Below are positions 2,051 to 58,954 of a DNA stretch of 64,000 nt, in pieces. Under the pieces are notes generated by a model. The model did no database searches and was not told where the DNA came from. It saw only the letters and a list, made by a program, of their open reading frames with translations. Every line of letters starts with the position of its first letter. The first letter of the stretch is position 1. This stretch comes from Dehalococcoidia bacterium (lineage in GTDB: Bacteria; Chloroflexota; Dehalococcoidia; Lucifugimonadales; UBA3495), in assembly GCA_965204805.1 (NCBI GenBank), contig OZ242013.1, positions 2,541,232 through 2,605,231 of the forward strand. The letters run 5' to 3'. The position numbers and the translations under genes were made by a program.

Positions 2051-2054
2051 ACTG

Positions 2055-2348
2055 GTGTCAGAAATCCTGTCGAACCGATTCGCCAACCGGGATACCGAGT
2101 TAGCTTTACGAGGCGGCTATGTCCGATGGCTTCCTCCTGACATCCGCCGCCGGGCGAAAGAGAGTCTCCGGCGCGTGGCTCTGACGCCTTCCCTAGAAAA
2201 CCTGCGTTTCCCGCCTTCCCAACGGCTGGAAGCGCTGAGAGGCGACCGGGAAGGTCAGCACAGCATTCGCATTAACGACCAGTGGCGAGTGTGCTTTACC
2301 TGGACTGCGATGGGCGCCACGGAAATTGAAATTACCGACTACCATTAG
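2055..2348 (+). CDS. higB: HigB-like (plasmid maintenance system killer / RelE-fold) toxin
   Basis: 97 aa with a GTG start. The ...RLEALRGDREGQHSIRINDQWRVCFTW... signature is typical of HigB-family toxins. Confidence 0.8.
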   Translation: MSEILSNRFANRDTELALRGGYVRWLPPDIRRRAKESLRRVALTPSLENLRFPPSQRLEALRGDREGQHSIRINDQWRVCFTWTAMGATEIEITDYH

Positions 2349-2361
2349 GGAGGGATGGGCC

Positions 2362-2742
2362 ATGATTGACCCCGAAATCCTTGTTTCCGAAGATACGCCC
2401 CCAGAAGACTTTGAGCCTATACCTCCCATTCACCCCGGCCGAGATTTGGCGGAAATCATCGGAGAGTTGGAGATTAGCCCGGAGCGGCTGGCGGAAACCA
2501 TCGGAGTTCCTACGGATACCGTCAACGGGATTCTTGAAGGCAATCATCCTATAACCGGCGACATAGCCGTCCGCCTCGGCAAGGCTTTCTATATGTCGCC
2601 GGAGCTCTGGCTTAACCTACAGAAGATGTACGAACTGGAAGAGGCTGAGCTTCACACCGATACCAGCTTCATCGTCCCGCTGGTTCCTCCCCCGGACGAG
2701 GAATTGCTGCGGGCGCCCGTCGCCAAGTTCATCAGCCTCTAA
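2362..2742 (+). CDS. higA: HigA-family HTH (XRE) antitoxin
   Basis: IHPGRDLAEIIGELEISPERLAETIGVP...ITGDIAVRLGKAF is a HigA-type HTH. It lies directly downstream of higB. Confidence 0.8.
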   Translation: MIDPEILVSEDTPPEDFEPIPPIHPGRDLAEIIGELEISPERLAETIGVPTDTVNGILEGNHPITGDIAVRLGKAFYMSPELWLNLQKMYELEEAELHTDTSFIVPLVPPPDEELLRAPVAKFISL

Positions 2743-2781
2743 CTCTCTCCCAACCGCGTCAGTGCAATACATTCTCGGCGG

Positions 2782-3603
2782 TCACTGGCCGTTGGCCTCC
2801 ACTTCAGACAGGAATTGCAGCACTCGCTTGGCGTACTTTTCCGGCTCGTCGGCGTGGGGTTTGCACTCGCCCCACTGGCTGTTGGGGACGTGGCGGTGGG
2901 CCATCTCGGCCACGGCGCGGGGGTGGACGTCGTTGTAGCCGGGCATAATCATCGTTGGGACCCGGATGCTGCTCAGCATTTCCTTGGTGCTGCCGAGGGT
3001 GGGGAAGGGGCCGGCGAATAGGGCGTAGATGGTGTCGCGCATCACCTGAATGAACTCTTCGGTGTCCATCGCTTCGAGGTTCGCGCGGTAGTCGGCGTCG
3101 GTCTGGGCGATTTCTGGGCTGAAGGGGGCGAAGCGGTCGTCGGCGTCGAAGGCGTCTATCACTGCGCCTATGCCGTCGGCGGCGGCTATCTCCATGCTCT
3201 TGAACAGCTTGGAGGTCAGGTAGCCGTCGCAGATGACGCCACCGGCGATGTTGGAGGGGAAGATGGCCCGGACGCGCTCGGGGCGGCGGCAGGCGCACCC
3301 GAAGGATATGGCAGCGCCGAAGGAGCCGCCGCCGAGGTAAGCCTGCTCGATTCCCAGGGCGTCCAGCAGACCAAAGACATCCTCGCATACCATGTCCCAC
3401 GTCTGTACCACCATCGGACTGCGGGATTGGCCGCCGAAGCGCCGGTCGTAGACGATTACGCGGTGCTCTTGGGACAGGGCTTCGATCACCTCTCCGTAGC
3501 TGCTGGCCACGCCCTGTAGCCCGCCGGGCGAGAGGATGATGGGCGGGCCGCTGCCGGTCTCTTGGTAGTACAGTTCCGCGCCGTTTACTTTTGCTGTCGC
3601 CAT
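2782..3603 (-). CDS. alpha/beta-fold hydrolase
   Basis: NGAELYY..GSGPPIILSPGG, the nucleophile-elbow-like GGGSFG motif and the length are typical. The start is taken at MATAKV. Confidence 0.75.
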   Translation of the reverse strand: MATAKVNGAELYYQETGSGPPIILSPGGLQGVASSYGEVIEALSQEHRVIVYDRRFGGQSRSPMVVQTWDMVCEDVFGLLDALGIEQAYLGGGSFGAAISFGCACRRPERVRAIFPSNIAGGVICDGYLTSKLFKSMEIAAADGIGAVIDAFDADDRFAPFSPEIAQTDADYRANLEAMDTEEFIQVMRDTIYALFAGPFPTLGSTKEMLSSIRVPTMIMPGYNDVHPRAVAEMAHRHVPNSQWGECKPHADEPEKYAKRVLQFLSEVEANGQ

Positions 3604-3693
3604 TGTCCGGCCTCCTGTACGCATTTTCCCACGATTTCGGTTGAGGGGGATTATAGGCGTGTCGAAAGTGATAGGCAAAGGTTGACCGGATTT

Positions 3694-4833
3694 ATGGACG
3701 CAACTACCATCGCAGAATCAGCCAGCCGAGATAAGGACAGCTTTATGGCAATCGAGCAGTATGGACCAGCAGTAAGGGACGCCGAAGAAAAGATTCTTTC
3801 GTTCCTGCGGGTCTTCGAGTCCATCCAGGAAAATATGCGCGTGGAGAGGCTGGGCGAGTTTCAGGGACAGTTGCGCGAAGTCGCGCCGGATGGGTTCGCT
3901 GGCGTTATCGCCGGATTAGGGCAAGCCACGCCGCCGGAGCCGCTGCGCCCGTTTCACGACGCCTTTACTGCGGCGATTCGTCATTTGGGCAATACTTCCC
4001 AGACGTTTCTGAACGCCAGCGAAAGCAGCTACTCTCTTGCGGGTTTAGATATGCGACGGGCGCTGTGCCGGGGGCTGAACCTGCTGTACGGTATCCGGGC
4101 GGATACGCCAGTGCTGCAAGAATACTGGCTTCTACCGGAGGCGATGGCGGAGCGGGAGACACTGGAAACGCCCTCTCCGGACGCCGACGCTGCGGTAGGG
4201 GTGATACACCGGAGGCGGGCCGCGCCGCTGGCCGATTACTCGCTGTACGTGCCGGAGAGCTACACGCCGGGTCGGGAGTGGCCGCTGATTGTCTGCCTGC
4301 ACGGGGCTTACGGGCGCGGCGACCATTACATCTGGTCGTGGCTGCGCCCGGCCAAGAGCCGGGGCTATATGCTGCTGGCCCCCAAGTCGCTGGACGTTAC
4401 CTGGTCGATACTGCAACCGGAGCGGGACACCCAGTCGGTGGAGGCGATGCTGGAGGAGGTATGCGGGGAGTATGCGGTGGATCGGGGCCGGGTGTACCTG
4501 TCGGGGCTGTCGGACGGGGGGACGTTCACCTGGCTGCTGGGGCTGGGCCGGCCGGAGCTGTTCGCCGGAATCGCGCCGGTGGCCGGCGATTTTACGGGGA
4601 TGATGGACGATATGCTGCGGCGGAAGCAGGGGTTGGGGCTGCCCATCTGTATCGCGCACGGCGCCCACGACCACATCTTTGCGGTGGAGCCGATACGCAG
4701 GGGCCACGCTCTGCTGCAACGGTTGGGCTACAACGCGCGGTACGAGGAGCTGGCGGACTGGGGGCATTCGTACTGTTCGGGCGTGAACGAGCGGGTAGTT
4801 ATGCCGTGGTTCGAGGGGTTGTCTGAACTGTGA
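3694..4833 (+). CDS. esterase / phospholipase-carboxylesterase-type alpha/beta hydrolase with N-terminal extra domain
   Basis: LIVCLHGAYGRGD...YLSGLSDGGTF (GxSxG-like) ...AHGAHDHIF. The last codons and the stop lie inside repeat copy A. Confidence 0.65.
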   Translation: MDATTIAESASRDKDSFMAIEQYGPAVRDAEEKILSFLRVFESIQENMRVERLGEFQGQLREVAPDGFAGVIAGLGQATPPEPLRPFHDAFTAAIRHLGNTSQTFLNASESSYSLAGLDMRRALCRGLNLLYGIRADTPVLQEYWLLPEAMAERETLETPSPDADAAVGVIHRRRAAPLADYSLYVPESYTPGREWPLIVCLHGAYGRGDHYIWSWLRPAKSRGYMLLAPKSLDVTWSILQPERDTQSVEAMLEEVCGEYAVDRGRVYLSGLSDGGTFTWLLGLGRPELFAGIAPVAGDFTGMMDDMLRRKQGLGLPICIAHGAHDHIFAVEPIRRGHALLQRLGYNARYEELADWGHSYCSGVNERVVMPWFEGLSEL

Positions 4834-4914
4834 TTCGTGTGATTTCGATGATTGCGCTGAATTTCGCGCTACTGAATCAAGGCAATCCCTTAATCACAAA
4901 AATCACAGTTCAGA
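4821..4914. repeat. PAL-GATT palindromic intergenic repeat, copy A
   Basis: GTCTGAACTGTGATT...AATCACAGTTCAGA inverted termini, with GATT/AATC phased every 9 nt. Confidence 0.85.
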
Positions 4915-15169: not shown

Positions 15170-16354
15170 TTACCCCAGCAGACGGGTTTTCTGCGTCTCG
15201 AACTCCTCGCGGGTGAGGTAGCCCTGGTCCAGAAGGCGGGCCAGGCGTTCCAAGTCGCCTACCAGGGAGGTAGTATTGGCGGCAGGGTCCTGGGCTACTG
15301 AGCGGTCTACTTGGCGCACGTCGGTTACGCCGCATAAGCCCATGGCCACGCTCAGTTCGTTGCGCAAGATTTCGAGGCAGTGGGTGAGGCCCGCTTCGCC
15401 GGCGACGGAGAGTCCCCAGAAGATGGGGCGGCCCACGAAAGTGGCCTTGGCGCCGAGGGCCAAGGCTTTCAGCACATCGGCGCCTTTGCGGACGCCGCCG
15501 TCGAGGTAGACCTCCAGCCGGTCGCCCACGGCGTCGGCGATGGAGGGGAGCATATCTATGGAGCCTTCGGTGCCTTGCAGGGCGTGGCCGCCGTGGTTGG
15601 AGACCACCAGGGCCTCGGCACCGTTCTCGACACAGAGACGGGCGTCCTCGGCGGTCTGGATGCCCTTGACCACCAGCGGCATGGTGGTAATGGAGCGCAG
15701 CCACTCCAGGTCGCGCCAGTTCAGGCCATGCTCGAAGCTCTCGGAGAAGTTGCCCTGATTGGGCAGGTTGGGCAGCTCGATGCCGTCGAAGTTCTTGAGA
15801 ATGCGCTCCTGGTCCAAGATGTAGGCGTAGCGGTATTCGCGCTCGCGGGAGTTTGCGCCGAGGTTGTCCACCGTGAGCATCATGGCGGTGTATCCGGCGT
15901 TTTCGGCGCGGCGCACCAGTATCTCGGTGAGCTCGCGGTCCTGGAAGAAGTAGAGCTGGAACCAGAGCGGGTTGTCGGCCACCTCGGCCACCTCTTCGAT
16001 GCTGTAGCTGGAGGCGGTGCTGAGGCCCATGATGGTGTCGGCGGCAGCGGCGGCGCGGGCCGAGGCCAGTTCGCCAGCCGGGTGGGCGCGCTGGTGGGTG
16101 CCGGTGGGCGCCAGCATCACCGGGAAGCTGATTCGCTGACCAAGAACCTCGGTGGACATATCGCGCTGGCTAACGTCCACCAGGACGCGCGGGCGCAGCT
16201 TGACGGCTTCCATGGCCCGGACGTTGGCAGTGTTTGTGGTCCAGTCGGGGGCGTCCATATCGCCGAAAAGACGGTCGAACAGCGCTTTCGGCATGGTCTC
16301 CTTGGCGCGGGCTTCGTAGTCGTTGATGGTGAGCAGGGCGTTCTGCGTAGTCAT
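15170..16354 (-). CDS. FMN-dependent alpha-hydroxy-acid dehydrogenase/oxidase with C-terminal SHOCT-like tail
   Basis: Glycolate oxidase/LldD-type motifs (VSNHGG, DGGVRKGADV). The tail is LERLARLLDQGYLTREEFETQKTRLLG. Confidence 0.8.
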   Translation of the reverse strand: MTTQNALLTINDYEARAKETMPKALFDRLFGDMDAPDWTTNTANVRAMEAVKLRPRVLVDVSQRDMSTEVLGQRISFPVMLAPTGTHQRAHPAGELASARAAAAADTIMGLSTASSYSIEEVAEVADNPLWFQLYFFQDRELTEILVRRAENAGYTAMMLTVDNLGANSREREYRYAYILDQERILKNFDGIELPNLPNQGNFSESFEHGLNWRDLEWLRSITTMPLVVKGIQTAEDARLCVENGAEALVVSNHGGHALQGTEGSIDMLPSIADAVGDRLEVYLDGGVRKGADVLKALALGAKATFVGRPIFWGLSVAGEAGLTHCLEILRNELSVAMGLCGVTDVRQVDRSVAQDPAANTTSLVGDLERLARLLDQGYLTREEFETQKTRLLG

Positions 16355-17101: not shown

Positions 17102-18115
17102 TCAGAGGGCGTGCAGGGCGGGAATTACCTCTTTGCCCACGAGGTCTATATGCTCCAGCACCTCGCTCTGGGACATTTCGGGGTAGAACAGGCGGATGGC
17201 TACGTCGGTGAAGCCCATCTGGTGGTAGGCGGCAATCTGCTCAATGCACTCTTCGGGGCCGCCGACCAGGAAGGTATCGTCCATCAGCGTTTCAAGGTCG
17301 CCGGTGACCTTGCGAGTCAACTCGCCGTCGGCGCCGTGCAACCCATGCTGGGCGTATACCTCGTACTTCTTGGCGAAGTTGGCCTGAGCGCGGGACAGGG
17401 CTTCCTCGTGGGTTGGAGCGCAGAAGAACTCTCGGACGATGACCATATCTTCGGGCTTTTCGTGGCCGTTGGCTTCCAGGGTGCGGTGGTAGAGGTCAAT
17501 CTGGTGGCGGATGGACTCATTAGACTGGGCCGGGCCGATGTACAGAATTTCGCCTTCACGCCCGACGCGCTCCACTGCCGGGTCGCTCATGGCGGCTTGC
17601 CAAACCTTGGGGTAGGGCTTCTGGTAGGGACGGGCCGTGGGGCGGGCGCCGGTGACGTGGTAGTAGCGGCCGTGGTGTGTGACCTCGTCCTCAGACCAGA
17701 GGCGGCGCATCAGGTTCATGGCCTCGGTGCAGCGGGCGCCGCGCTGAGACATCTTCGTGCCGAAGGCTTCACATTCCTCGGGGCGGTAGCCCAGACCAAT
17801 GCCGAGGATGAAGCGGCCCTCGGCGATGTGGTCGAGGGTGGCGGCCTGTTCCGCCACGTCCACCGGGTTGAGAAGGGGCAGCAGCAGGACCGAGGTCGCC
17901 AGCTTCATATCGCCCGGTTCCCCGGCCAGGCGGGCCAGAACAGGCCACGGCTGGAAGTGTTGGAAGGGGTCTATCAAGTAGTGGTGCGCCCAGCAGTAGA
18001 TGTCGAAACCGGCGTCCCGTGACGCCCGGAACTGGGCTAGGTGGTTCTGCCACTGCTGCTGCTGGTCTATGGAGTCGCGCTGGACGACGTGGCCCACCTG
18101 GTAGCCTACGCGCAT
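17102..18115 (-). CDS. LLM-class flavin-dependent oxidoreductase
   Basis: Luciferase-like features. The start is taken at MRVGYQ because the longer ORF N-terminus is an H-hairpin repeat. Confidence 0.8.
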   Translation of the reverse strand: MRVGYQVGHVVQRDSIDQQQQWQNHLAQFRASRDAGFDIYCWAHHYLIDPFQHFQPWPVLARLAGEPGDMKLATSVLLLPLLNPVDVAEQAATLDHIAEGRFILGIGLGYRPEECEAFGTKMSQRGARCTEAMNLMRRLWSEDEVTHHGRYYHVTGARPTARPYQKPYPKVWQAAMSDPAVERVGREGEILYIGPAQSNESIRHQIDLYHRTLEANGHEKPEDMVIVREFFCAPTHEEALSRAQANFAKKYEVYAQHGLHGADGELTRKVTGDLETLMDDTFLVGGPEECIEQIAAYHQMGFTDVAIRLFYPEMSQSEVLEHIDLVGKEVIPALHAL

Positions 18116-18121
18116 AAAGGT

Positions 18122-18160
18122 ACACCCCCACCCTAACCCTCCCCCTGAGGGGGAGGGAAT
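18122..18160. repeat. H-hairpin repeat
   Basis: ACACCCCCACCCTAACCCTCCCCCTGAGGGGGAGGGAAT, identical to 34762-34800. Confidence 0.85.
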
Positions 18161-18300
18161 TTTGTCTGACAAATTAGCTCACCCGGCACCGTCTTCCCAT
18201 GAAAGCGGGAATTCAGAGGACGTTGCAAGCGGTGGTCTCACCCCCACCCCCTGCTTTCGCAAGGGCAGGCTCTAACCATCCACCAGAGGGAGAGGGAACG

Positions 18301-19197
18301 TTACTCGCCGACATGGCGGTACTTGACCAGCCGGTGGCCTTCGAGGTTCTGGTTGACGTAGATGTCTCCGTGGGAGTCCACCCAGACGGCGTGGGCGCCC
18401 TGGCCGTGGCCGACCTCGACCGGGCTGCCCCAGCGGGCGAGGATGTCGCCGTCCATGTTCAGGATGGACATGAAGCCGTCCAGCTCCGGCACGAAGATGA
18501 CTTCGTCGGCATCTATGTAGATGTCGCAGGGACGGGCGAGACCCAACCACTGTTCCAGGAAGTTGCCCTGGTCATCGAAAATCTGGATGCGGTTGTTCTC
18601 GCGGTCGGCGACGAAGACGCGCCCGTCGGTGTGAACCCAGACTCCGTGGGGGACGTGGAACTCGCCGTGGCCGGTCTTGCCGGGCTGCCCCCAGGACTCG
18701 ATGAGCTGGCCATCGTTGGTGAAGCGGTGGACGCGGGCGTTGCCATAGCCGTCGGAAATGTACAGGTCGCCATTGGGGTGGATGGCGACGTCGCTGGGGC
18801 TGTTGAAGGGCCCGGCGGCTCTTTCCACTACATCGCTGTAACGGCCCGACCAGCCGGTGTCGGAGGGCTGGTCCCATTCGCCCATGGTCATCAGCAGGTT
18901 GCCTTTGGGGTCGTACTTCAGCACGACGTGGCTGTTTTTAACCGGCATGTACAGGTTCTCGTCGGCGTCAATGTACATACCGTGGGCGTCGGGAAGCTGT
19001 CCCTCGCCCCACGAGGTGAGGAAGTTACCGTCGCGGTCGAGGACTATCAGGGGGTGTTCCCCACGATTGAAGAGATAGACGCGGTCCTGGGAGTCGGTGA
19101 CGATGGCCGTCTGCCCCAGCGCCCAGCCTTCGGGCAGCTTCTCCCAGTTGGGGACCTCTTCGTAGGTGTACTTGCCCTTGCCAACAGTTGCCATCAC
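18301..19197 (-). CDS. NHL-repeat six-bladed beta-propeller protein (PAL-like)
   Basis: Repeated ...D..G.(I/V)YV.D..N.R(I/V)... blades. Confidence 0.7.
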   Translation of the reverse strand: MMATVGKGKYTYEEVPNWEKLPEGWALGQTAIVTDSQDRVYLFNRGEHPLIVLDRDGNFLTSWGEGQLPDAHGMYIDADENLYMPVKNSHVVLKYDPKGNLLMTMGEWDQPSDTGWSGRYSDVVERAAGPFNSPSDVAIHPNGDLYISDGYGNARVHRFTNDGQLIESWGQPGKTGHGEFHVPHGVWVHTDGRVFVADRENNRIQIFDDQGNFLEQWLGLARPCDIYIDADEVIFVPELDGFMSILNMDGDILARWGSPVEVGHGQGAHAVWVDSHGDIYVNQNLEGHRLVKYRHVGE

Positions 19198-19265: not shown

Positions 19266-19499
19266 TCAGGCCAGCGCATCCCGAATCAGGGCGGCGGCAG
19301 CGGCGGCCAGCAGCCCGCCGCCTATCCCTATCACCGCCCATAACAGCCGGTCTATCCGGCGGTTGGTGTCCGCTTGGGACGCCGCCAAGTCCGATTTCGT
19401 CGCCATTTCCCCTCGAATTTCGGCGATGTCCGCTTTCGTCGCCAAGTGTTCGTGTCCCGCCTCCAGCCGGGCTATGCGTTCTTCGTTACTGATGGCCAT
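19266..19499 (-). CDS. small coiled-coil protein with C-terminal transmembrane anchor
   Basis: 77 aa with heptad-like repeats (LATKADIAEIRGEMATKSDLAA) followed by a hydrophobic tail. Confidence 0.4.
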   Translation of the reverse strand: MAISNEERIARLEAGHEHLATKADIAEIRGEMATKSDLAASQADTNRRIDRLLWAVIGIGGGLLAAAAAALIRDALA

Positions 19500-19553: not shown

Positions 19554-20114
19554 CTAATACGTCGTCAGCACGTCAATCACCGCTTGCTCCAACTCACCGG
19601 CGCGGACCGCCACCTGCTCCGGCTTCAATCCACCCAGCGGGTGTGGGAAGCCCAAGGGCCGGAAGTCGCGGCGGCCGAAGGTGTTGGCGTGGCGGAAGGC
19701 CGAGTTCAGGAACGGGTCGGTACACAGCACCACGGTAGGAACGCCCCGGTTTTCGAGGGTCATTGCGTCGTGCACACTGCACGCGGTGCAGGACCCTCAA
19801 TCGGCGATGGCGGTGACAACGAAGTCGCAGCGCACCGCCAGTTGGTCGATGATGTCGTCCGCAGCCGGGCGGGAGTAGACGTACTTGTCCACAGCCAGGG
19901 AGTCGCCGAGTTCCATGTCCCGGTCCAGCAGTTCGCGGACGTTGTGGAGCAACAGGGCCGCGTTGGCCTTGCGGTTGCCCAGGAAGCCGCCGACCTTGCC
20001 GTGCAGGGTGTCGAGACGAGGGGCGGGCCGCCAGCGGTTGGCGGCGTCGGGGTCTATGGGCGACATCAGACCCATCTGTCGCAAGCGTTCTTCTACGTTG
20101 GTTGCGGTGGTCAT
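19554..20114 (-). CDS. candidate selenoprotein (UGSC motif) with in-frame UGA at 19797-19799
   Basis: Two same-frame ORFs are separated by a single TGA, reading ...TAIAD-U-GSCTAC.... A SECIS-like stem-loop lies immediately 3' of the UGA. RBS AAAGGTGAG is upstream of the ATG at 20114. Confidence 0.65.
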
Positions 20115-20131
20115 GTTTTTCTCACCTTTCT

Positions 20132-20224
20132 GTCTGAACTGTGATTTATGGGATTAAGAGATTACCTTGATTTTATATGCTGGAATCAAGGCAATCATAA
20201 AAATCCGACGAATCACAATTCAAT
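20132..20224. repeat. PAL-GATT palindromic intergenic repeat, copy B (more diverged)
   Basis: GTCTGAACTGTGATT...AATCACAATTCAAT. It supplies the stop codon of the 20213..21244 gene. Confidence 0.8.
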
Positions 20225-21244
20225 CTTGCGGGTTACCGCGCGGGAGCCCCAGCCGGGCAGGTAGACCGAGTGGGGGCCGCCTGCGCCGCCAGCTACGAAT
20301 ATGTGGATGCGGTCGGGGGCGCGGACTACCGGCACCATCTGGTCGTCGTCGTCCGGGTCTATGAAGCGGGGCCAGAAGTGCCCTCGGCGGGCGTCACCCT
20401 GGGGCGGGCCGCCGTGCTTCAGCATCCGCACCGGCTTGCGGGCGCGCTCGAACAGGAATTGCCGGATGTCCCGCTTGTTCCAGCCGTCGGCGTGGAGGAA
20501 TTTGGCGTGCTCCGGGCCGATGACGACGAAGGTGTCGCCCATGACGTACATCTGTACGTTGCCGAGGGGGCACATGGTGTCTGCCAGCACGGTCAGGAAG
20601 TCACGGGAGTTGGAAGCGTGGTACATGATGTTGTGCGGCGCCTCGGCAGGAAACACCGTTACAGTGCTGTCGGTGGCGGCGTAACCCATCTCAACGTGCA
20701 TCGGCATCCATGGGTTGGCTGTCTCGTCCTCTGCGACGCAGTAGGTGTAGGCCCCCGGGTGGCCGAAGGTGGCCTTGTTGGTTTCGCCTGGTATTGCGCC
20801 GCCCAGGTTGACCAGCGCCAGCTTGACGGCGCGGCCGATGGTGGCGTTGGCCCGCCAGCCCGAGCCGAAACAGTTATAGCCTCCGTTGATGTCAAGCTGC
20901 TGCACGGCGGGGCCGTTGACGATGAGCAGCGGGGTGTGGATGCCGGTGGAGCACATGACGCCGCGCAGGTTGAAGCGCTCGTCCATCATGGCCTGCAGGG
21001 CAGTGATGACGACGGGCATGTGCTCAGGTACGCAGCCGGCCATCACCGCGTTGACAGCGATGCGCTCCACGGTGGCCCGTCCCCCAAGGGGCGGCAGTTC
21101 GGCTATCAGCTCGTCTCCGCCGCGCCCGGTGTGGGCGACGAAGCGGCGCACCAGGTCCTCGGACGGCGGCACCACAGGTAGGCCGTCGGTCCAGCCGGTC
21201 TCGAACATCAACTCAATGGCGTCGGTAAGTTCGGTTGAAAGCAT
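20213..21244 (-). CDS. conserved protein of unknown function (GWTDGLPVVPPS N-terminal motif)
   Basis: 343 aa with coding-like composition. I recognise no named family. Confidence 0.6.
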   Translation of the reverse strand: MLSTELTDAIELMFETGWTDGLPVVPPSEDLVRRFVAHTGRGGDELIAELPPLGGRATVERIAVNAVMAGCVPEHMPVVITALQAMMDERFNLRGVMCSTGIHTPLLIVNGPAVQQLDINGGYNCFGSGWRANATIGRAVKLALVNLGGAIPGETNKATFGHPGAYTYCVAEDETANPWMPMHVEMGYAATDSTVTVFPAEAPHNIMYHASNSRDFLTVLADTMCPLGNVQMYVMGDTFVVIGPEHAKFLHADGWNKRDIRQFLFERARKPVRMLKHGGPPQGDARRGHFWPRFIDPDDDDQMVPVVRAPDRIHIFVAGGAGGPHSVYLPGWGSRAVTRKIEL

Positions 21245-21288: not shown

Positions 21289-22455
21289 TTACTTGCCCTT
21301 GAACTCGGGCATCACTTCCTTTGCGAACCACTCCAGTTGCTCGGTGATCACGCTTTGGGGGGTTCCTACGGGATGGCTTACGCCCACACGGTCTAGCCCG
21401 GGGTACTGCTTCTCGACCGCCTTTAGCTGCTCGATGACCCGGTCCGGCGGGCCGGCCAGGAATGCGCCGCCTTCTACCGCGCCCTGGATGGTGGGCAGAC
21501 CGGCGGTGGGGGCGCGGCTTGGGTCGCCGATGTCGCGGATTTGCTCATCGGACAGACGGCGGGTAAGGCGCAGCGGGCCGAACATCTTGAGGTTTTCCTC
21601 GAAGAAGCCCTGGGCCTCCTCCATAGCCTGCTCCACGCTGGGGGCGAGGTGGAAATGGAAGCCGACGCTGAGGTTGGTTCCGGGCTCGGGTTCCTCGTGG
21701 CCGGCACGAATCATGGCGTCGCGGTAGCCGTAGATGACGTTGTCCATGGCTCCGCCCTCGGCCACGCCGCCGCCAATGATGCCCTTGATGTTGTGCTTGA
21801 CCATGAAATCCAGCGCCCGCTGGGTGCCGCCCTGGATGGGCTGCCAGCACTCGACCGGCAGCTTGGTCGGGCGCGGCACGAGGGTCAATTCCTTGAGGGT
21901 GTAGCCGCGATAAGGCACCTCGGGCGGCAGGGTGTAGTACTTGCCCTGGTGCGACCATGACTCTTCATTGAACGCCTTGAAGATGATTTCGACCTGCTCC
22001 TCGAACATCTCGCGGTTGGCGTCCTGGTCCTGGAGCGGCGAGCCAAAGCTCTCCACCTCGCGGGTGTGGTAGCCCCGGCCTACGCCGAAGATGACGCGGC
22101 CTCCGGTCAGGATGTCGGCGGTGGCGTAGTCCTCGGCCAGCCGCAGCGGATGCCACATGGGGGCGATGTTGAAGCCGCAGCCGAATTTGAGGTTCTTGGT
22201 GACGTGGGCTAGGTGGACGTTGAGCATGATGAGGTTGGGGATGCACTCGTAACCTTCCGGCTGGAAGTGGTGCTCGGCCATCCACATGGTGTCGTAACCG
22301 TTCTCGTCCATGGTCTTGGCGATGGCCTCGGACTTGGGGAAGACCGTGGACAGGTGGTCGTTGTCAAACAGGCGGTCGTTGACCGCGATGCCGCCGTAGC
22401 CGATGTTGGTCATGTCAACGTGGCCGGCGAAGAGGCTGTCGAATTTGGTGATCAT
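21289..22455 (-). CDS. LLM-class flavin-dependent monooxygenase/oxidoreductase
   Basis: Luciferase-like motifs (MAEHHFQPEGY..., VIFGVGRGY). Confidence 0.8.
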   Translation of the reverse strand: MITKFDSLFAGHVDMTNIGYGGIAVNDRLFDNDHLSTVFPKSEAIAKTMDENGYDTMWMAEHHFQPEGYECIPNLIMLNVHLAHVTKNLKFGCGFNIAPMWHPLRLAEDYATADILTGGRVIFGVGRGYHTREVESFGSPLQDQDANREMFEEQVEIIFKAFNEESWSHQGKYYTLPPEVPYRGYTLKELTLVPRPTKLPVECWQPIQGGTQRALDFMVKHNIKGIIGGGVAEGGAMDNVIYGYRDAMIRAGHEEPEPGTNLSVGFHFHLAPSVEQAMEEAQGFFEENLKMFGPLRLTRRLSDEQIRDIGDPSRAPTAGLPTIQGAVEGGAFLAGPPDRVIEQLKAVEKQYPGLDRVGVSHPVGTPQSVITEQLEWFAKEVMPEFKGK

Positions 22456-22480: not shown

Positions 22481-22576
22481 GTCTGAACTGTGATTTGTGA
22501 GATTTCCGTGATTGCCCTGATTTTCTTGCTCCCGAATCATGGCAATCCCTATAATCACAAAAATCACAGTTCAGAC
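22481..22576. repeat. PAL-GATT palindromic intergenic repeat, copy C (best preserved)
   Basis: GATT at element positions 12, 21, 30 and 39, mirrored by AATC x4. Termini are GTCTGAAC/GTTCAGAC. Confidence 0.9.
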
Positions 22577-23739
22577 TATTCGTAGGGCTGGAGTTGGATT
22601 TCGTGTAGGGCGGGGATGACTTCGCGGCCCAGCAGTTCCACGGAGCGCATTACGTCGGCGTGGTTCATGTCGCCTTCATTGCCGTAGATGTGGAGGTAGC
22701 CGGGGTTCAGACGCTCGATGATGTTGCTGAGCTTGCGGGTTACGGTGTCGGGGCTGCCGACGATTACGTTGTCCACGTCCTGGAGTTCCTGGTAGGTCAT
22801 GCGGCGTCCGAAGCCCCCGGCGCCGGGTAGCTGGCGCTGGATGCGCACCGCCTCGCGGGACTGGTAGCCGGGCGGGTCGTTGTGCTCCACCGGGCCGCGG
22901 TTGCGATGGTTTTCCGTCCACAGGAAGGTTTCGCCGATCCGCTGTGCCTCTTCGTCGGTGTCGGCGCAGAACACTCGCAGCAGGTAGCCGAAATGCTCCG
23001 GGCCGGGGGTAAAGCCGACTTCCTTGGCAGTGTCTATGTAGACACCCTTCAACCCTTCGGTGTAGTCCAGCAGCGAGCCGAGGTTCATGTAGGGGTGCTG
23101 GTGGCGGGCCGCCCAGACAACGCTCTCGGCGCTGGACAGGCCGGGGAACCAGATGGGCGGGTGCGGGTCCTGCACCGGCAGCACCCAGGGGTTCACGGCG
23201 CGGTAGTGGTAGAACTGGCCCTCGTATCGGAAGGGGCCGGGCTGCGTCCAGCATTTGATGATGAGGTCGTGGGCTTCCTCGAAGCGGGCGCGGTTCTCGG
23301 CGGGGATGATGCCCCCGGCCAGGCTCTCGACTGCGGTGCCGCGCACGAAGCCGGAGATGATGCGCCCGTTGGAGAAGCAGTCCAGCATGGCGATTTCCTC
23401 GGCCATGCGGATGGGATCGTTGACCGCGATGACGTTGCCGAGGATGGCAATCTTGGTGTTCTTGGTTATCTTGGAAATGACGGCCGCGTCGAGGTTGACG
23501 GCGGGCTTCATGCACCAGTAGGAGGCGTGATGCTCGTTGGACATGATGCCGTCGAAGCCCACCTCGTCGGCCAGCGCGTACTGCTCGTGGTATTGGTTGT
23601 AGAGTTCGTGGGCCTTCTCCGGGTCGAAGAAGGTGTTGGGGAACCCGAGCCTGCCGGAGTCGTACTGCTCCAGGTCGGCGTCGGTTACGTGGGCGTAGGG
23701 CTGTTCGGAGAACCAGAAAACCTCAATAGTGTCTTTCAT
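22576..23739 (-). CDS. LLM-class flavin-dependent monooxygenase/oxidoreductase
   Basis: Luciferase-like motifs (SNEHHASYW..., GRIISGFVRG). Confidence 0.8.
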   Translation of the reverse strand: MKDTIEVFWFSEQPYAHVTDADLEQYDSGRLGFPNTFFDPEKAHELYNQYHEQYALADEVGFDGIMSNEHHASYWCMKPAVNLDAAVISKITKNTKIAILGNVIAVNDPIRMAEEIAMLDCFSNGRIISGFVRGTAVESLAGGIIPAENRARFEEAHDLIIKCWTQPGPFRYEGQFYHYRAVNPWVLPVQDPHPPIWFPGLSSAESVVWAARHQHPYMNLGSLLDYTEGLKGVYIDTAKEVGFTPGPEHFGYLLRVFCADTDEEAQRIGETFLWTENHRNRGPVEHNDPPGYQSREAVRIQRQLPGAGGFGRRMTYQELQDVDNVIVGSPDTVTRKLSNIIERLNPGYLHIYGNEGDMNHADVMRSVELLGREVIPALHEIQLQPYE

Positions 23740-23860: not shown

Positions 23861-25162
23861 TTACACCACCGCCGCGGGCCTTGCCGCCAGCTCGCGCCCG
23901 GCGCTGCGGGCCACGCCGAACCAGATGGTCACCAGCAGCATCAGCCCTGCCGCGCCGGTTATCGCCCAGCCCCAGCCAGCATTGGCGGCGACGAAGGCCA
24001 GGGGCAGCGCGCCCAGGTAGTGGAAGCCCGGGGTGAAGTGGAGTATGCCCATCACCCGCCCGCGCACTTCCGCCGGGGTAGCCAGTTGCAGGATGGTCGT
24101 TGACAAGGGCCAGACGGTGCCAAGACTCACTATCCCGACGACAAGGAACAAGGCCCAGGCCACCCAGAACGACGTGGACCAGCCGAACAGGGTCAGCATG
24201 ACGGCCATGACCACCAGGCAGGCCAGCAGCCATCGGTATAGCCAGGCCCGGTTCATGAAGGTTATGGCCAGGTTGCCGATCAGAGAGCCAATCCCCGAGG
24301 CCAGCAGCATCACGCCTGCCTGGGTAGCGTCGGAGCCCAGTTGGTCCTTGGCAAAGACGGGCACCACCTGGAGGTGGGACATCCCAAAGCCTCCGAAGGA
24401 GCAGGACAGGACGATGACGGTGAGCAGCACCGGCGTGTTCTTGATGACCGACAGACCGTTAATAAAGTTCTGGAGCAGCGGTTCGCGGGCCGGCGCCGCG
24501 GCGCTGGAAGTCCAGCGTATCGGCATGAGGCAGAGCACGCTTGCGCCGTAGAAAGCCGCGTTGGCTATCAGCCCGGTGCCGATTCCCCATACACTGAAGC
24601 TGTCGGCAATCAGCGGCGGGCCGTCAATGAGGACACCCACCAGCGGCGGACCGATTATCCGTCCGATATGCACCGCCGCGTTGAACTGGGCCACCGCGTC
24701 CAGAAGCGCGCCCTGGCCCACCAGGTCCGACAGCGTGGTGACCCGCGCCGGCTGGTTCAGGGCTTGCAGCACTCCCAGCAAGGCCACCGCCAGGTAGATA
24801 TGCCATACGGCGACCACCTGGGTCAGCGTGAGCACGGCCAGGACGCCAATCAGCGCGCCTACTCCGGCCTGGGTGGCTATCAGCAGGTATTTGCGGTTCA
24901 GCCGGTCGGCTATCACCCCGCCGAAGGGCAGCATGGCGGTGTTGGGTATGCCGTAGAGGAACACCATCACGCCCGTCAACTGGAGAGAGGACCCGGTGAG
25001 CTCCAGCATCAGCCAGATGAGGACCAGGAACTGCATCCCCTGGGCCACCGACTGGGTGGAAGACGCCATCCAATACCAGCGGAAGCCACCAACGCGCCAC
25101 GGGCCCAGCATCCGGCTCCAGTAGGATGGGGCAGCGGGGGTTGGTGAAGAGTTCGCTACCAA
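23861..25162 (-). CDS. MFS transporter
   Basis: About 12 hydrophobic segments and the GG(V/I)IADRxxRK loop motif. Confidence 0.8.
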   Translation of the reverse strand: MVANSSPTPAAPSYWSRMLGPWRVGGFRWYWMASSTQSVAQGMQFLVLIWLMLELTGSSLQLTGVMVFLYGIPNTAMLPFGGVIADRLNRKYLLIATQAGVGALIGVLAVLTLTQVVAVWHIYLAVALLGVLQALNQPARVTTLSDLVGQGALLDAVAQFNAAVHIGRIIGPPLVGVLIDGPPLIADSFSVWGIGTGLIANAAFYGASVLCLMPIRWTSSAAAPAREPLLQNFINGLSVIKNTPVLLTVIVLSCSFGGFGMSHLQVVPVFAKDQLGSDATQAGVMLLASGIGSLIGNLAITFMNRAWLYRWLLACLVVMAVMLTLFGWSTSFWVAWALFLVVGIVSLGTVWPLSTTILQLATPAEVRGRVMGILHFTPGFHYLGALPLAFVAANAGWGWAITGAAGLMLLVTIWFGVARSAGRELAARPAAVV

Positions 25163-25307: not shown

Positions 25308-26609
25308 TCACGTCGCCGCCGGGTGCGCCGCCAGTTCCCGGCCTGTCCTGCGGCCCAGCCCGAAAGTGAGCGTCACCACCAGGCAGACGCCCGCGGCCCC
25401 GGTTATCGCCAGCGGCCAGCCTACTCCGGCGGCGGCCAGCGTCAGGGGCCAGGCCCCCAGGAAGTGCAGGCCCGGCACCAGGTGGAGCACACCCATCACC
25501 CGGCCGCGCACCTCCGCCGGGGATGCCAGTTGCGCTATGGTGGTCGTAAGCGGCCATACCCAGCCGATGGCCACCACACCCACCAGCAGGGTGAACACCC
25601 AGGTCGTCCAGAACCAGCCATCCCAGGATGTCCCGGTCAGGTCATCGAAAGACCCGCTCCAGGCGAACAGCGTCAGCAGAACCACGAAGGTCACCAGGCA
25701 GAACAGCAGCCAGCGGTAGAGCCAGGCCCGGTGCATGAAGGTCAGGGTCATGCTGCCGATGAGCGCCCCTATGCCCGAACCCAGCAGCAGCAGTCCGACC
25801 TCGGACGCGCCGCTGCCGAGCTGCTCCTTGGCAAAGGCGGGCACCACCTGGAGATGCGCCATCCCGAACCCGCCGAAGAAGCAGGTCATCACCAAGACCG
25901 TCAGCAGCAGCGGGGTATCGCGGATGACTGCCAGCCCCTCGCCGATATGGCGCAGCAGCGGCTGGCGACTGGTCTCGGGGTGGCTGTATGTTCCGCGAAC
26001 CATGGCCAGCAGGAGGACGCTGGCCCCGTAGCAGGCGGCGTTCAGGACCAGCACCGCGCCAATGCTCCACTGGTCTATCAGAACCCCGGCCACGGGCGGG
26101 CCAACGATCCGGCCGGCGTGCTGCGCCGCGTTGAACTGGGCCACGGCGTCCAGCAGCCTGTTCTCGCCCACCAGATCGGCGAGCATGGCCAGCCTGGCGG
26201 GCATATTCAACGCCTGCAACACCCCAAGCAGGGCCGCCGCGAGGTATATGTGCCAGAGGGCCACGTTGCCCGTGATGGTGAGCGCGGCCAGCCCGGCAAT
26301 CATGGCCCCCACCATCGCCTGGGTGACCATCAGGAGCTGCTTGCGGTCCATCCGGTCGGCGATGATGCCGCCGGCCAGCAGGAAGGCGATGTTGGGCAGG
26401 CCGTACAGGGATATGGTCAGCCCCAACTGGGTCTTGTCGCCGGTGACCTCCAGCACCAGCCACCCCAGGACCAGGAACTGCATTCCCTGGGACATGGCCT
26501 GGGCCAGCGATCCGGCCCAGTACCAACGGAAAGAAAGAACCTCCCACGGTCCCTTTATCCGGCTCCATACAGAGGGAGAGACCGATGCCGGCGGCCTGTC
26601 GGCTACCAA
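25308..26609 (-). CDS. MFS transporter (tandem paralog of 23861..25162)
   Basis: Same length (433 aa), colinear with its neighbour and clearly similar to it by eye. Confidence 0.8.
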   Translation of the reverse strand: MVADRPPASVSPSVWSRIKGPWEVLSFRWYWAGSLAQAMSQGMQFLVLGWLVLEVTGDKTQLGLTISLYGLPNIAFLLAGGIIADRMDRKQLLMVTQAMVGAMIAGLAALTITGNVALWHIYLAAALLGVLQALNMPARLAMLADLVGENRLLDAVAQFNAAQHAGRIVGPPVAGVLIDQWSIGAVLVLNAACYGASVLLLAMVRGTYSHPETSRQPLLRHIGEGLAVIRDTPLLLTVLVMTCFFGGFGMAHLQVVPAFAKEQLGSGASEVGLLLLGSGIGALIGSMTLTFMHRAWLYRWLLFCLVTFVVLLTLFAWSGSFDDLTGTSWDGWFWTTWVFTLLVGVVAIGWVWPLTTTIAQLASPAEVRGRVMGVLHLVPGLHFLGAWPLTLAAAGVGWPLAITGAAGVCLVVTLTFGLGRRTGRELAAHPAAT

Positions 26610-27085: not shown

Positions 27086-27188
27086 GTCTGAACTGTGATT
27101 TGTTTGATTTGAGGATTTTTGTGATTTTTCTCCTGAGCATCACCAGTAATCCTGAAAATCATTTAATCAAATAAATCACAGTTCAGAC
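27086..27188. repeat. PAL-GATT palindromic intergenic repeat, copy D
   Basis: Lies in the divergent promoter region between the cupin and SDR genes, with the same termini. Confidence 0.85.
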
Positions 27189-27231
27189 ACAAGGGGAGAA
27201 CGAGGAGAGTACCCGACAGGGAGGTATATTT

Positions 27232-28913: not shown

Positions 28914-31859
28914 ATGAACCAACAAGCCCGCAAGACCATCGGCGTCGCACTGCTCCTGGCCGCGGCCCTCCTCGCTATTCTGGTTGTTACCGTTCTTTCG
29001 TCCTCGTCCCCGCCCGGAGTTGCCGCGCACGAGTGCGCCCCTGATCCCACCCCGAATCACCAAGACTCCCGTGGGGCGGATTGCGATACTAACGAACACC
29101 GCGACCCTGATCACCAAGCCCCCCGCAAGGTCAACACAGTGGACGGGGGAAGAGACCGGAAGCTGGTGTTCCATGTCAGTGCGGGAGAAGGCAGCAGCTA
29201 CCTTGGCGAAAACGACCAGATCGAATTCATGCTGCCGGGGTTTGACCTGCCAAATAGCATTGACAAAGAACTCATAAAACTTTCCGGCAGCGGTGACCCC
29301 GATGACCAAGACCCTCTCAACCCGTCGTCTGCCACCCCTGGCGTCGGCAATTTACTAACCCTGGCTTTGCCACCTGGGCTTGCAACCAGAATCGGCGCTC
29401 ACGAGTACCTCATCGTTACCATTGAAAAAGGAACCGGTATCCTAACGCCGGAAATTCCCAAAGGGTTCGACGACTCTGATGAAGGATACAGTGTCGGCAT
29501 TACCTTAATCGATAAGGCAAACACCAACAATCCGAGCCGGAGTGATCCTCAGTACGAAAACATCGTAGTGGTCAGGAACCCTGTCAGTTCCACCGTTCCC
29601 AGCGATACGGTGCACGTTGAGCTGGCAACACACACGGAAATGGATCTCAAAAGCGGCGATGAAATCACGGTGGATTTTTCCGGCCCTTCCGCCGATTCTG
29701 ACTTCGTCGTTCCGGCCAGCAGAGTAACCAAAGGCAGGATTAAGATAGACCCCGATGATCCTAATGTCATGCCAAGTTCCTTCCCACCTTCGGATGTCCT
29801 GGTTCAGGGCGCCAGGGTGACACTAACTATTCCGAGAATAGATGAAGCCGAGATAAATTGGGCAGGCGACTACACTATTTCCTTCACCTCCGCCGCCGGC
29901 ATCAAGAACCCCTTTGCCGCCGGTAACCATGTCATAAAGGTTTGGTCCTCTGTCGAGGGAGAAGACAAAGGAGACGATATAACGGCGGTAATACGGCGGA
30001 CAACCACGATAGATACCGAGGAAGGCCCTCGCGGAACTGAGTTCATCCTGACGGGCAAGGGCTACCCACCTGGCACGGTCACCGTCTACCACGACGCCGA
30101 CTGCGACGGGAAAATCGACGCCGGGGAAACCCTGGCTTCCAGGAACACCACGAGGGGCGTGTTTAACGTTGACCTGGTAGCCCGCGAGCCCCGCGAACTG
30201 GATATTCCTGAGTGCCGCCCATTGAATCCCCTTGAGTACCGGGTCAAGGCCAAGGACAGCGAAGGAGTGGACGCTGAGGTGGTTTTCCGCATCGAAAGCG
30301 GTATCCTCTTCGTCCCGGACCCGGCCCAGGTCGGCTCGCCGCTGAAAATCACCATCTCGGACTGGAAGAACCCCAATGAGCACGTGGCCGTCGTCAATAT
30401 TGCCGGTGAACCGGCCTACGTCACGGGCGTGAAAGCGTATAGCAACTGCATCGACTATACCGGCGAATTCAGGGCGAACGACGACCGCGTGATGTCCCTT
30501 GAGGTCCTGGTTCCTGTGCACGTGCCGCCGGGGGAGCAGACGGTTGCGCTCTATGACCATGGAGAGTTGGTGAATTATCTGGTAGATGAAAAAGGCAAAT
30601 ATGTGCTCGATGATGAAGACAACAAGATTCAATACACCGAGGTTGTGGATGTGTGCTCCGACCTGCCTTCAAACAAAAAAAGGGGAAGCAGGGTTGACAG
30701 CAATTTGGTGGCTGAGCTGAAGGAGGAGCCGTCGCCACCAATAATCAAGGCAACCGTCAAGATAGTGGAGCAGAACTTGACGCTGACCCCGGACACGGCG
30801 GCGCGGGGGCAGAAGGTCACCATTACCGCCACCGGGTTCACCCGGGCCGCAAGGGGAGAGGACCACATCAGGTCGGTGTGGATCGGGGGCGTGAGGGTTC
30901 CCGACGACCATTCAGAGTTCGAGGTGGGAACCAACCGCGACATCGCTTTCACCGTCACCGTCCCGCTGGACGTTGCCGACGGGCCCAATGAGGTGCTGAT
31001 AGAAGGCGCAGACCACACCCTGGGCCAAGCGACGCTGGAGATACCGAAAGCGTCCATCACCCTCGCCCCGCCGCAGGGACAGCGAGGCACGGAGCTTACG
31101 GTGACCGGCAGCGGCTTCGTCGCCAAGGAAGCGGTGCTGCTGTCCTACCACAGCGGGGCGCTTATCACGTCCGCAACCACCGAACTGGCAAGTTCAGGGA
31201 TACTGGCCGATGCCCAGGGCGGGTTTGAGTTGCCTTTCAAGGTGCCGGTCACCGCCGAGGTGGGATTGAGCCACCTGGTCACTGCGGTGAGCAAGGCGGA
31301 TACCCCCGCAGCGGTCAGGGCCGAGGCCAGCCACCTGGTCACCCGGACCGACATCACGACCACGCCCGGTTCGGTATCGCCGGGCGATCACCTGGCCATC
31401 AGCGCCCGTCGCATGCCGCCCTTCACGCTGGTCGGCCCCATAAAAATCGCCAGCATACCCCTCAGCCTCCCTCCCGGAGTCGCCACTGATGAAGACGGCT
31501 CCTTCGAGACGAAGGTCCTGATTCCCCATATCGAATATGGAGACCATACCCTGCTGGTCCAGGTGGCCGGGGTGATAATTCCCCACGTAGTCGAGGTGGC
31601 CCCCCCACCCCTCAGCGGCCCGCCCGGCCAGGTGTTCAAATACCCAATCAGGAGCGGGACATTATCAACGGTATGGCACTACGACAACGCCACCCAGTTG
31701 TGGAGCCTGTTCGACCCATTGCTCAATGGGGAGATGGCGGAACTGAACGACCTGACGGAGGTCGGCAGCGGCGACATAGTGTGGGTCAATGTGAGCGAAC
31801 CGCTGTTCTTCCAGGGGAACAGTCTGAAGTCCGGCTGGAACCTGGTCAAGCTGGAGTAG
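28914..31859 (+). CDS. large secreted/anchored surface protein with IPT/TIG-like Ig-fold repeats
   Basis: N-terminal TM/signal (IGVALLLAAALLAILVV). Repeated G(Q/P)(K/R)GTE(L/F).(V/L)TG.GF units. Confidence 0.6.
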   Translation: MNQQARKTIGVALLLAAALLAILVVTVLSSSSPPGVAAHECAPDPTPNHQDSRGADCDTNEHRDPDHQAPRKVNTVDGGRDRKLVFHVSAGEGSSYLGENDQIEFMLPGFDLPNSIDKELIKLSGSGDPDDQDPLNPSSATPGVGNLLTLALPPGLATRIGAHEYLIVTIEKGTGILTPEIPKGFDDSDEGYSVGITLIDKANTNNPSRSDPQYENIVVVRNPVSSTVPSDTVHVELATHTEMDLKSGDEITVDFSGPSADSDFVVPASRVTKGRIKIDPDDPNVMPSSFPPSDVLVQGARVTLTIPRIDEAEINWAGDYTISFTSAAGIKNPFAAGNHVIKVWSSVEGEDKGDDITAVIRRTTTIDTEEGPRGTEFILTGKGYPPGTVTVYHDADCDGKIDAGETLASRNTTRGVFNVDLVAREPRELDIPECRPLNPLEYRVKAKDSEGVDAEVVFRIESGILFVPDPAQVGSPLKITISDWKNPNEHVAVVNIAGEPAYVTGVKAYSNCIDYTGEFRANDDRVMSLEVLVPVHVPPGEQTVALYDHGELVNYLVDEKGKYVLDDEDNKIQYTEVVDVCSDLPSNKKRGSRVDSNLVAELKEEPSPPIIKATVKIVEQNLTLTPDTAARGQKVTITATGFTRAARGEDHIRSVWIGGVRVPDDHSEFEVGTNRDIAFTVTVPLDVADGPNEVLIEGADHTLGQATLEIPKASITLAPPQGQRGTELTVTGSGFVAKEAVLLSYHSGALITSATTELASSGILADAQGGFELPFKVPVTAEVGLSHLVTAVSKADTPAAVRAEASHLVTRTDITTTPGSVSPGDHLAISARRMPPFTLVGPIKIASIPLSLPPGVATDEDGSFETKVLIPHIEYGDHTLLVQVAGVIIPHVVEVAPPPLSGPPGQVFKYPIRSGTLSTVWHYDNATQLWSLFDPLLNGEMAELNDLTEVGSGDIVWVNVSEPLFFQGNSLKSGWNLVKLE

Positions 31860-58876: not shown

Positions 58877-58954
58877 GCCCCGGTCGTCTAGCCAGGTCAG
58901 GATGCCACCCTTTCAAGGTGGAGATCAGGGGATCGAAGCCCCTCCGGGGTACCA
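58877..58954 (+). tRNA. tRNA-Glu: tRNA-Glu (anticodon UUC), CCA encoded
   Basis: Cloverleaf folded by eye. Anticodon arm is CCACC-CTTTCAA-GGTGG and T-arm is GGGGATCGAAGCCCC. Close to canonical tRNA-Glu. Confidence 0.9.

Follow-up and report, generated by a model that had tools for sequence, protein, structure and literature searches.

A 64,000-nucleotide stretch of a Dehalococcoidia bacterium genome (contig OZ242013.1, positions 2,541,232 to 2,605,231; hereafter the window) carries a minus-strand gene that almost certainly encodes a selenoprotein of the UGSC family, with an in-frame UGA read as selenocysteine (Sec). The gene occupies a single frame from 20114 to 19554, comprising 186 sense codons and a terminal TAG, and its sole internal stop is a TGA at 19799..19797, codon 106. 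A mechanical list of open reading frames (ORFs) splits this frame into a 105-amino-acid ORF at 19797..20114 and a 73-amino-acid ORF at 19554..19775, both on the minus strand and in the same frame. The initial annotation of this DNA had proposed joining the two across the stop; its coordinates and the shared frame proved exact throughout, and translation places one TGA between the ORFs. Reading through the stop gives the context ...RCDFVVTAIAD-U-GSCTACSVHDAMTLENRGVPTVVLCTDPF..., with the residues AIAD-U-GSCTACSVHDAMTLENR lying over the Sec codon. Sec106 and Cys109 together form a U-G-S-C redox motif (19788..19799, minus strand), for which the family consensus is D-[U/C]-G-S-C.

Several other features frame the gene. 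A Shine-Dalgarno-like AAAGGUGAG (20121..20129, minus strand), read directly from the sequence, stands 6 nt ahead of the ATG at 20114. Directly after the UGA, the transcript can fold into a stem-loop (19753..19800, minus strand) whose inner hairpin (19769..19783) is the putative conserved core of a bacterial selenocysteine insertion sequence (bSECIS). Upstream on the same strand lies a gene for a 343-amino-acid protein of an unannotated family (20213..21244), a conserved neighbour that we refer to as the partner. Downstream, also on the minus strand, lies an NHL-repeat beta-propeller gene (18301..19197), which is syntenic in all 80 closely related loci and missing from distant ones. The genome has a GC content of 62%, and GC content at third codon positions (GC3) is about 0.85 for both the N-terminal ORF of the UGSC gene and its neighbours. 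TGA is a normal terminator in the gene map of the window, ending 21 of the 56 genes (TAG ends 19 and TAA 16), and the genome has thus undergone no global reassignment of UGA.

Profile models assign the read-through protein to its family across the stop. With the internal stop replaced by Cys for scoring, the protein matches the Pfam family PF24696 ('UGSC family') at 152.4 bits (cutoff 25, E 1.7e-44) over residues 18-184, a span that includes the stop. It also passes the NCBIfam model NF041046 ('UGSC family (seleno)protein'), marginally, scoring 126.3 bits where the curated cutoff is 125. The latter name had appeared in the initial annotation; such a family does exist, and both models include the read-through protein in it. 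Its length of 186 amino acids fits the single-domain UGSC size of about 170-200 amino acids. The 'UGSC-containing protein' was among the most abundant selenoprotein families in the Global Ocean Sampling (GOS) data, with 255 Sec forms and 21 Cys forms, and its fusion with a domain named Unknown_1 was noted in the same work (Zhang & Gladyshev, PLoS Genet 2008, PMC2398784). A 2026 review places UGSC under NF041046 and describes nearly all such families, UGSC included, as functionally uncharacterised (PMC13188914). The window gene and its relatives resemble the published family in size, in the D-U-G-S-C motif, in the alternation of Sec and Cys at one column, in a bSECIS directly after the UGA, and in that the related loci are mostly Sec forms. 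Nothing essential differs, and a third Cys (U-G-S-C-x-x-C) is particular to the clade of the window gene and to related clades. The window gene is a member of a modelled selenoprotein family that was in print by 2008 and has been known since the Sargasso and GOS selenoproteome surveys, and as a gene call it is routine.

The recoding itself can be judged by comparison with two sets of loci. The close set consists of 80 loci (79 distinct coding sequences, or 57 distinct sequences for hairpin pairing counts) from a one-genome-per-species scan, all from metagenome-assembled genomes of Dehalococcoidia, SAR202 or Chloroflexota, with 70-98% protein identity. The distant set consists of nine Sec-form loci from metagenomes, with 35-49% protein identity. 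In tblastn searches, the matches of the 80 close loci run through the stop. The codon at the Sec column is TGA in 80 of 80 close and 9 of 9 distant loci (89/89), never TAA, TAG or a sense codon, and the motif reads U-G-S-C in these 89 loci as in the window. After the TGA, the frame remains open for 78-85 further codons in the close loci, ending in true terminators that vary between TAG, TAA and TGA. Relative to the window, differences at codon positions 1/2/3 amount to 0.18/0.10/0.39 upstream of the stop and 0.11/0.06/0.33 downstream, a coding signature of purifying selection on both sides. The Asp codon preceding the UGA is GAT in all 79 distinct coding sequences.

Full-length homologues reveal what stands in place of the stop. 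With the exact 80-residue C-terminal piece as query, an exhaustive HMMER search, from which a low-complexity artefact (P0125) and a frameshifted call (P0026) were excluded, recovered relatives of 175-212 amino acids, and all those inspected read ...G-D-C-G-S-C-T-S... at the stop column. In an alignment of 49 sequences (22-43% identity), Cys102 is invariant, and Asp98, Cys99 and Gly100 are nearly so (numbering of the Cys form P0142). The expectation that homologues would carry conservation past the stop, and Cys or Sec at this column, is thus borne out on both counts. A further claim, that a U-x-x-C motif here overlaps a CxxC, stands in part: U-G-S-C-T-A-C is present in the window, and its third Cys is not conserved across the 49 sequences. 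Because the family models pass across the stop, the codon is TGA in every locus while true terminators vary, the downstream sequence has a coding pattern, and the homologues carry Cys, the in-frame UGA almost certainly encodes selenocysteine.

Public gene calls show exactly the two ORFs described above, and could be taken to mean that there are two products: termination at the UGA would yield a 105-amino-acid protein, with the downstream 73-80 codons translated from an internal GTG or ATG, or not translated. To our knowledge, Sec insertion is never fully efficient, and some termination product is to be expected. As an account of the locus, however, two separate products are highly improbable. 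Any internal start would lie beyond the residues G-S-C-T-A-C-S, which are conserved at the protein level and include the invariant Cys of the family; the Cys homologues are continuous single chains; the profile match is uninterrupted across the stop; the stop is TGA, and no other, in 89 loci; and no Shine-Dalgarno sequence precedes the GTG at 19775. The split calls are better seen as an annotation problem, which the initial annotation had anticipated of standard gene callers. Databases hold N-terminal fragments of about 105 amino acids and C-terminal fragments of about 65-90 (typically about 75). UGSC genes are divided in this way in essentially all Dehalococcoidia/SAR202 assemblies examined, and such fragments in the public collections searched carry the name 'hypothetical protein' or none.

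The single-gene reading also draws on the RNA structure that follows the UGA. The SECIS element of Escherichia coli fdhF has a bulged U, and the hairpin in the window is without such a bulge. The bSECISearch consensus for bacterial elements specifies an apical loop of 3-9 nt, a stem of 4-16 bp, a distance of 16-37 nt from UGA to loop and a minimum free energy of -7.5 kcal/mol or lower, with a G in the first two loop positions that is usually followed by G or U (PMC13188914). The window hairpin, CGUGCA-GUG-UGCACG at 19783-19769, falls within all of these ranges: its loop is GUG (3 nt, starting G-U), its stem CGUGCA/UGCACG has 6 bp, its loop lies 19 nt from the UGA, and its energy is -7.6 kcal/mol when it is forced to fold alone in context. 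Around it, an outer stem pairs 19800-19792 with 19761-19753, including GAGGGUC (19798-19792) with GACCCUC (19761-19755), and the whole element reaches -25.1 kcal/mol. As a 58-nt segment, this fold has a z-score of -3.43 and is not equalled by any of 200 dinucleotide shuffles. When 151 nt are folded together, the inner hairpin is still present, although the overall z-score, at only -1.62, is unremarkable. The inner hairpin and its bacterial SECIS geometry with a G/U apical loop are as first described.

The hairpin lies inside a conserved coding region, and synonymous sites therefore provide a useful test. Among the 79 distinct coding sequences, mean codon entropy over residues 108-116 is 0.10 bits, compared with 0.91 for the gene; it ranks first for low entropy among 178 sliding windows, the nearest value elsewhere being 0.56, and none of 100,000 random draws fell to this level. 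Together with the constant TGA, this puts the signal far beyond chance. Codons 111-115 (GCG TGC AGT GTG CAC) are invariant at synonymous sites. All 89 Sec forms keep the loop U, at the wobble position of Ser-AGU, despite a GC3 of about 0.85. The inner hairpin is 99.4% paired across the 57 distinct close sequences, and the nine distant loci have the same hairpin at the same position, often with 8-10 bp and with loops of GUG, GUU, GUC or GUA. Changes to the hairpin in these nine comprise one compensatory replacement (G-C to U-A, in L090) and four that keep pairing through wobble. RNAalifold, given a mixed alignment of close and distant loci, returns exactly this 6-bp hairpin. The outer stem that the initial annotation drew around it is real in this sequence, but it is not conserved: the outer helix is 89% paired, 22 and 33 of the 57 distinct sequences have lost one or other of two base pairs in it with no compensatory changes, and other clades surround the inner hairpin with different outer pairings. 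The element matches the published consensus in its loop, upper stem, spacing and energy; its lower stem is clade-specific.

Several observations weigh against this hairpin as a SECIS element, and against Sec decoding. Covariation is modest, with one compensatory pair and 19 of 500 shuffles reaching the observed score, and the 80 close loci (57 distinct sequences) show no covariation, their hairpin being invariant. The peptide C-S-V-H by itself imposes part of the stem. A Cys-form gene with this peptide (L091, 186-728) keeps the stem, with a loop of GCG rather than GUG; this stem is either left over from a recent conversion of Sec to Cys or simply a consequence of the peptide. In favour of the element, the other two of the three Cys-form genes have lost the hairpin, with forced energies of -2.5 and -4.1 kcal/mol. 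On the opposing side, the hairpin has no match in Rfam: searches of the whole window at gathering thresholds and of the local region at E<=10 gave no SECIS family, and a chance microRNA match was discounted. As for the decoding machinery, ARAGORN found no tRNA-Sec in the window, where the only tRNA is a tRNA-Glu at 58877. A motif scan of the window found no SelB- or SelD-type motifs, and Pfam searches with its 20 largest otherwise unassigned genes identified no SelA, SelB or SelD. Related-locus DNA totalling 1.05 Mb gave no tRNA-Sec with ARAGORN and no SelD-like gene with tblastn from an approximate E. coli SelD query. These absences are uninformative about the rest of the genome. A de novo scan of the window for genes with an in-frame TGA returned 203 candidates and was too noisy at 62% GC, and nothing specific on Sec in SAR202 was found in the literature.

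A downstream hairpin can stimulate generic read-through. The hairpin here could act in this way, with near-cognate insertion of Trp, Cys or Arg at the UGA, and the lack of Sec machinery genes in the window and the related DNA would suit such an account. We nevertheless regard read-through without Sec as very unlikely. The column is a redox-active Cys in all Cys homologues, UGSC is an established Sec/Cys family, the hairpin fits the geometry and loop motif of a SelB-type bSECIS, TGA is an ordinary terminator in the window, and selenoproteins are on record in Chloroflexi (PMC1794560). A single in-frame stop in one sequence can also look like a nonsense mutation, but a pseudogene or a sequencing or assembly error is extremely improbable and, on the comparative sequence data, already refuted by the presence of the same TGA in 89 independent assemblies (35-98% protein identity) under purifying selection on both sides.

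We are consequently highly confident that the locus holds one gene for a UGSC-family selenoprotein of about 186 amino acids, in which UGA codon 106 is decoded as Sec with a downstream bSECIS, and for which we propose a redox role. In the proposed mechanism, the mRNA hairpin, with its 6-bp stem and G-U-N loop, would act as the bSECIS and recruit SelB with Sec-tRNA(Sec) to the ribosome. By analogy with the U-x-x-C of the GrdB/PrdB reductases, for which the same chemistry has been proposed, Sec106 would most likely make the nucleophilic attack and Cys109 would resolve it, the two forming a selenenylsulfide.

Structural modelling offers some indication of how this site is presented. P0142, which of the full-length Cys forms is nearest to the window protein at 40% identity, was modelled with AlphaFold2 at a predicted local distance difference test score (pLDDT) of 94.9. 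The model has the layout beta-alpha-beta-alpha-beta-[C-G-S-C]-alpha-beta-alpha, with C-G-S-C in a turn between the third strand and the next helix. Foldseek searches of the PDB with this model matched flavodoxin-like domains and flavin mononucleotide (FMN) azoreductases at template modelling (TM) scores of 0.39-0.49, and no thioredoxin fold appeared among the top 50 matches. The UGSC fold is thus predicted to be a small, flavodoxin-like alpha/beta domain. The thioredoxin-like fold proposed in 2008 (PMC2398784) is not supported by the beta-alpha-beta model or by these matches. Sequence and profile searches of the PDB with the UGSC protein and with its partner gave no significant relatives, and a P-loop match to ArsA reflects merely a strand-loop-helix resemblance. 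Like the thioredoxin-fold selenoproteins with UxxC or CxxU motifs (Trx-like, Prx-like and SelW-like), UGSC is a small redox protein in which Sec and its resolving Cys stand two residues apart where a helix begins, and its association with a thioredoxin-reductase-like flavoprotein, in fusions and neighbourhoods, suggests similar recycling. It differs in its predicted topology, which is beta-alpha-beta of flavodoxin/Rossmann-like type with the motif after the third strand.

A different kinship is suggested by the selenoprotein B components of glycine and proline reductases. Sub-threshold matches to GrdB (TIGR01917) occur in 27 of 49 diverse UGSC members (best E 2.6e-5), and GrdF, GrdH, PrdB or TIGR01918 are matched by 8-20 of the 49; no other family recurs in more than two. 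UGSC resembles GrdB, GrdF, GrdH and PrdB (TIGR01917, TIGR01918, TIGR04483; PF07355) in having U-x-x-C placed after a hydrophobic beta-strand and ahead of a helix and an 'E..G-[IV]-P-T-V' strand. With hhalign, against a template of GOS PrdB/GrdB reads taken from the supplement of PMC2398784, D-C-G-S-C falls over U-P-V-C, Sec on Sec and Cys on Cys, and the 'E..G-V-P-T-V' strand falls over 'E...I-P-T-V'. From these correspondences we infer that the UGSC active site may be a GrdB/PrdB-like module. The two groups differ in length (about 180 amino acids for UGSC and 186 in the window, against about 430 for GrdB/PrdB). They differ also in context: the UGSC locus has no GrdA, GrdE or PrdA-type pyruvoyl partner nearby, and its partner is the unrelated 343-amino-acid protein.

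This partner accompanies the gene with great regularity. Of the 80 close loci, 79 have it upstream in the same orientation, and eight of the nine distant Sec loci have it upstream. Each of the three Cys forms examined also adjoins it: in L091 and L092 it precedes the UGSC gene, and in L093 it lies downstream. Two further proteins, P0247 (561 amino acids) and P0262 (541 amino acids), fuse a Cys-UGSC domain to a domain that is 43% and 36% identical, respectively, to the whole partner. Such fusions are a classic sign that two proteins are linked, and this domain is possibly the published Unknown_1. The partner family comprises more than 7,900 sequence clusters at 90% identity, all with only 'hypothetical' names; it has no Pfam or NCBIfam model and no PDB relative, and could be defined as a new domain family. 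Its motifs are DGLPVVPP, NAVMAGCxPE, RANATIGRA, PEHA and VAGG. Cys71, in N-A-V-M-A-G-C-x-P-E, is its one universally conserved Cys, and the idea of an Fe-S cluster was dropped for this reason. Further invariant residues are D20, N92, T100, N133, R138, E172, H246 and R269. An AlphaFold2 model of the partner has a pLDDT of 79 and a predicted TM score (pTM) of 0.83; a class I fumarate hydratase fold, the best structural match, was set aside as too weak to use.

UGSC is also fused to a thioredoxin-reductase-like Pyr_redox_2 module in P0218, to NifU-like CxxC domains in P0201 and P0267, and to a short-chain dehydrogenase/reductase (adh_short) domain in P0164. The Cys-form locus L092 (ERZ27256346 contig, 835-4835) has the order partner, UGSC(Cys), family III CoA-transferase and Pyr_redox_2, which mirrors the fusion protein P0218. 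Neighbours in other loci include CoA-transferases, enoyl-CoA hydratase, and TRAP, TctC and major facilitator superfamily (MFS) transporters. Around the window gene itself lie three luciferase-like (LLM-class) oxidoreductases, the NHL propeller and two MFS transporters.

From these fusions and neighbourhoods, UGSC probably works with the protein encoded immediately upstream, and is probably re-reduced by a thioredoxin-reductase-like flavoprotein. We tentatively suggest, as a possibility that we would not favour over its alternatives, a two-component redox enzyme of organic-acid or osmolyte catabolism, in which UGSC would provide the selenium-bearing redox subunit and electrons would come from a flavoprotein disulfide reductase. 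No likelier is the fuller proposal that UGSC and the 343-amino-acid protein form a two-component selenium-dependent reductase, mechanistically related to the selenoprotein B site of glycine and proline reductase, recycled by a thioredoxin-reductase-like flavoprotein and active, in marine SAR202/Dehalococcoidia as well as other bacteria of aquatic habitats, on a substrate of the organic-acid or osmolyte type. Several findings temper these proposals. The GrdB/PrdB scores are far below family cutoffs (16.8 against 602 bits for the window protein), and Pfam GRDB (PF07355) is matched by 0 of 49 UGSC members. The hhalign E-value of 5.9e-4 comes with a probability of 29% and a template of five reads. 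The best fold match of the partner reaches a TM score of just 0.29, and its functional link to UGSC is drawn from genomic context alone. For an abundant aquatic selenoprotein family without an assigned function, the partner gene, the fusions, the predicted flavodoxin-like fold and the Sec site with its resemblance to GrdB/PrdB provide leads on function.

The three luciferase-like oxidoreductase paralogues (LLM-class, FMN/F420) flank the locus on the minus strand, at 17102-18172, 21289-22455 and 22576-23739; expansion of such paralogues is typical of SAR202. The two MFS transporters occupy 23861-25162 and 25308-26609, and an FMN-dependent alpha-hydroxy-acid dehydrogenase-like gene occupies 15170-16354. 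Three large ORFs have no Pfam match at E<=1e-5: 28914-31859(+) with 981 amino acids, 3562-4833(+) with 423, and 53864-55207(+) with 447, the last of which overlaps a candidate gene at 54910-56049 and may not be real. Directly downstream of the UGSC gene, a 77-amino-acid ORF (19266-19499, minus strand) begins with a coiled-coil-like region and ends in a hydrophobic segment; it matches no family and is found in only 8 of 80 related loci. Among the relatives, one complete genome (OZ244112.1) carries two partner-UGSC loci far apart (L023 and L025) with identical SECIS regions.

The spacer between the partner and UGSC (20115-20212) contains a near-perfect palindrome of about 85 nt, with 34% GC in a genome of 62% GC and a folding energy of -36.5 kcal/mol. 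It is missing from this spacer in most relatives. Related copies occur at the intergenic positions 4875-4914 and 27171-27189 of the window and in several relatives (L008, L006, L004, L013 and others), and the palindrome looks like a small dispersed element resembling repetitive extragenic palindromes (REP) or miniature inverted-repeat transposable elements (MITE). A sigma-70-like promoter match at 20223-20194 on the minus strand overlaps it.

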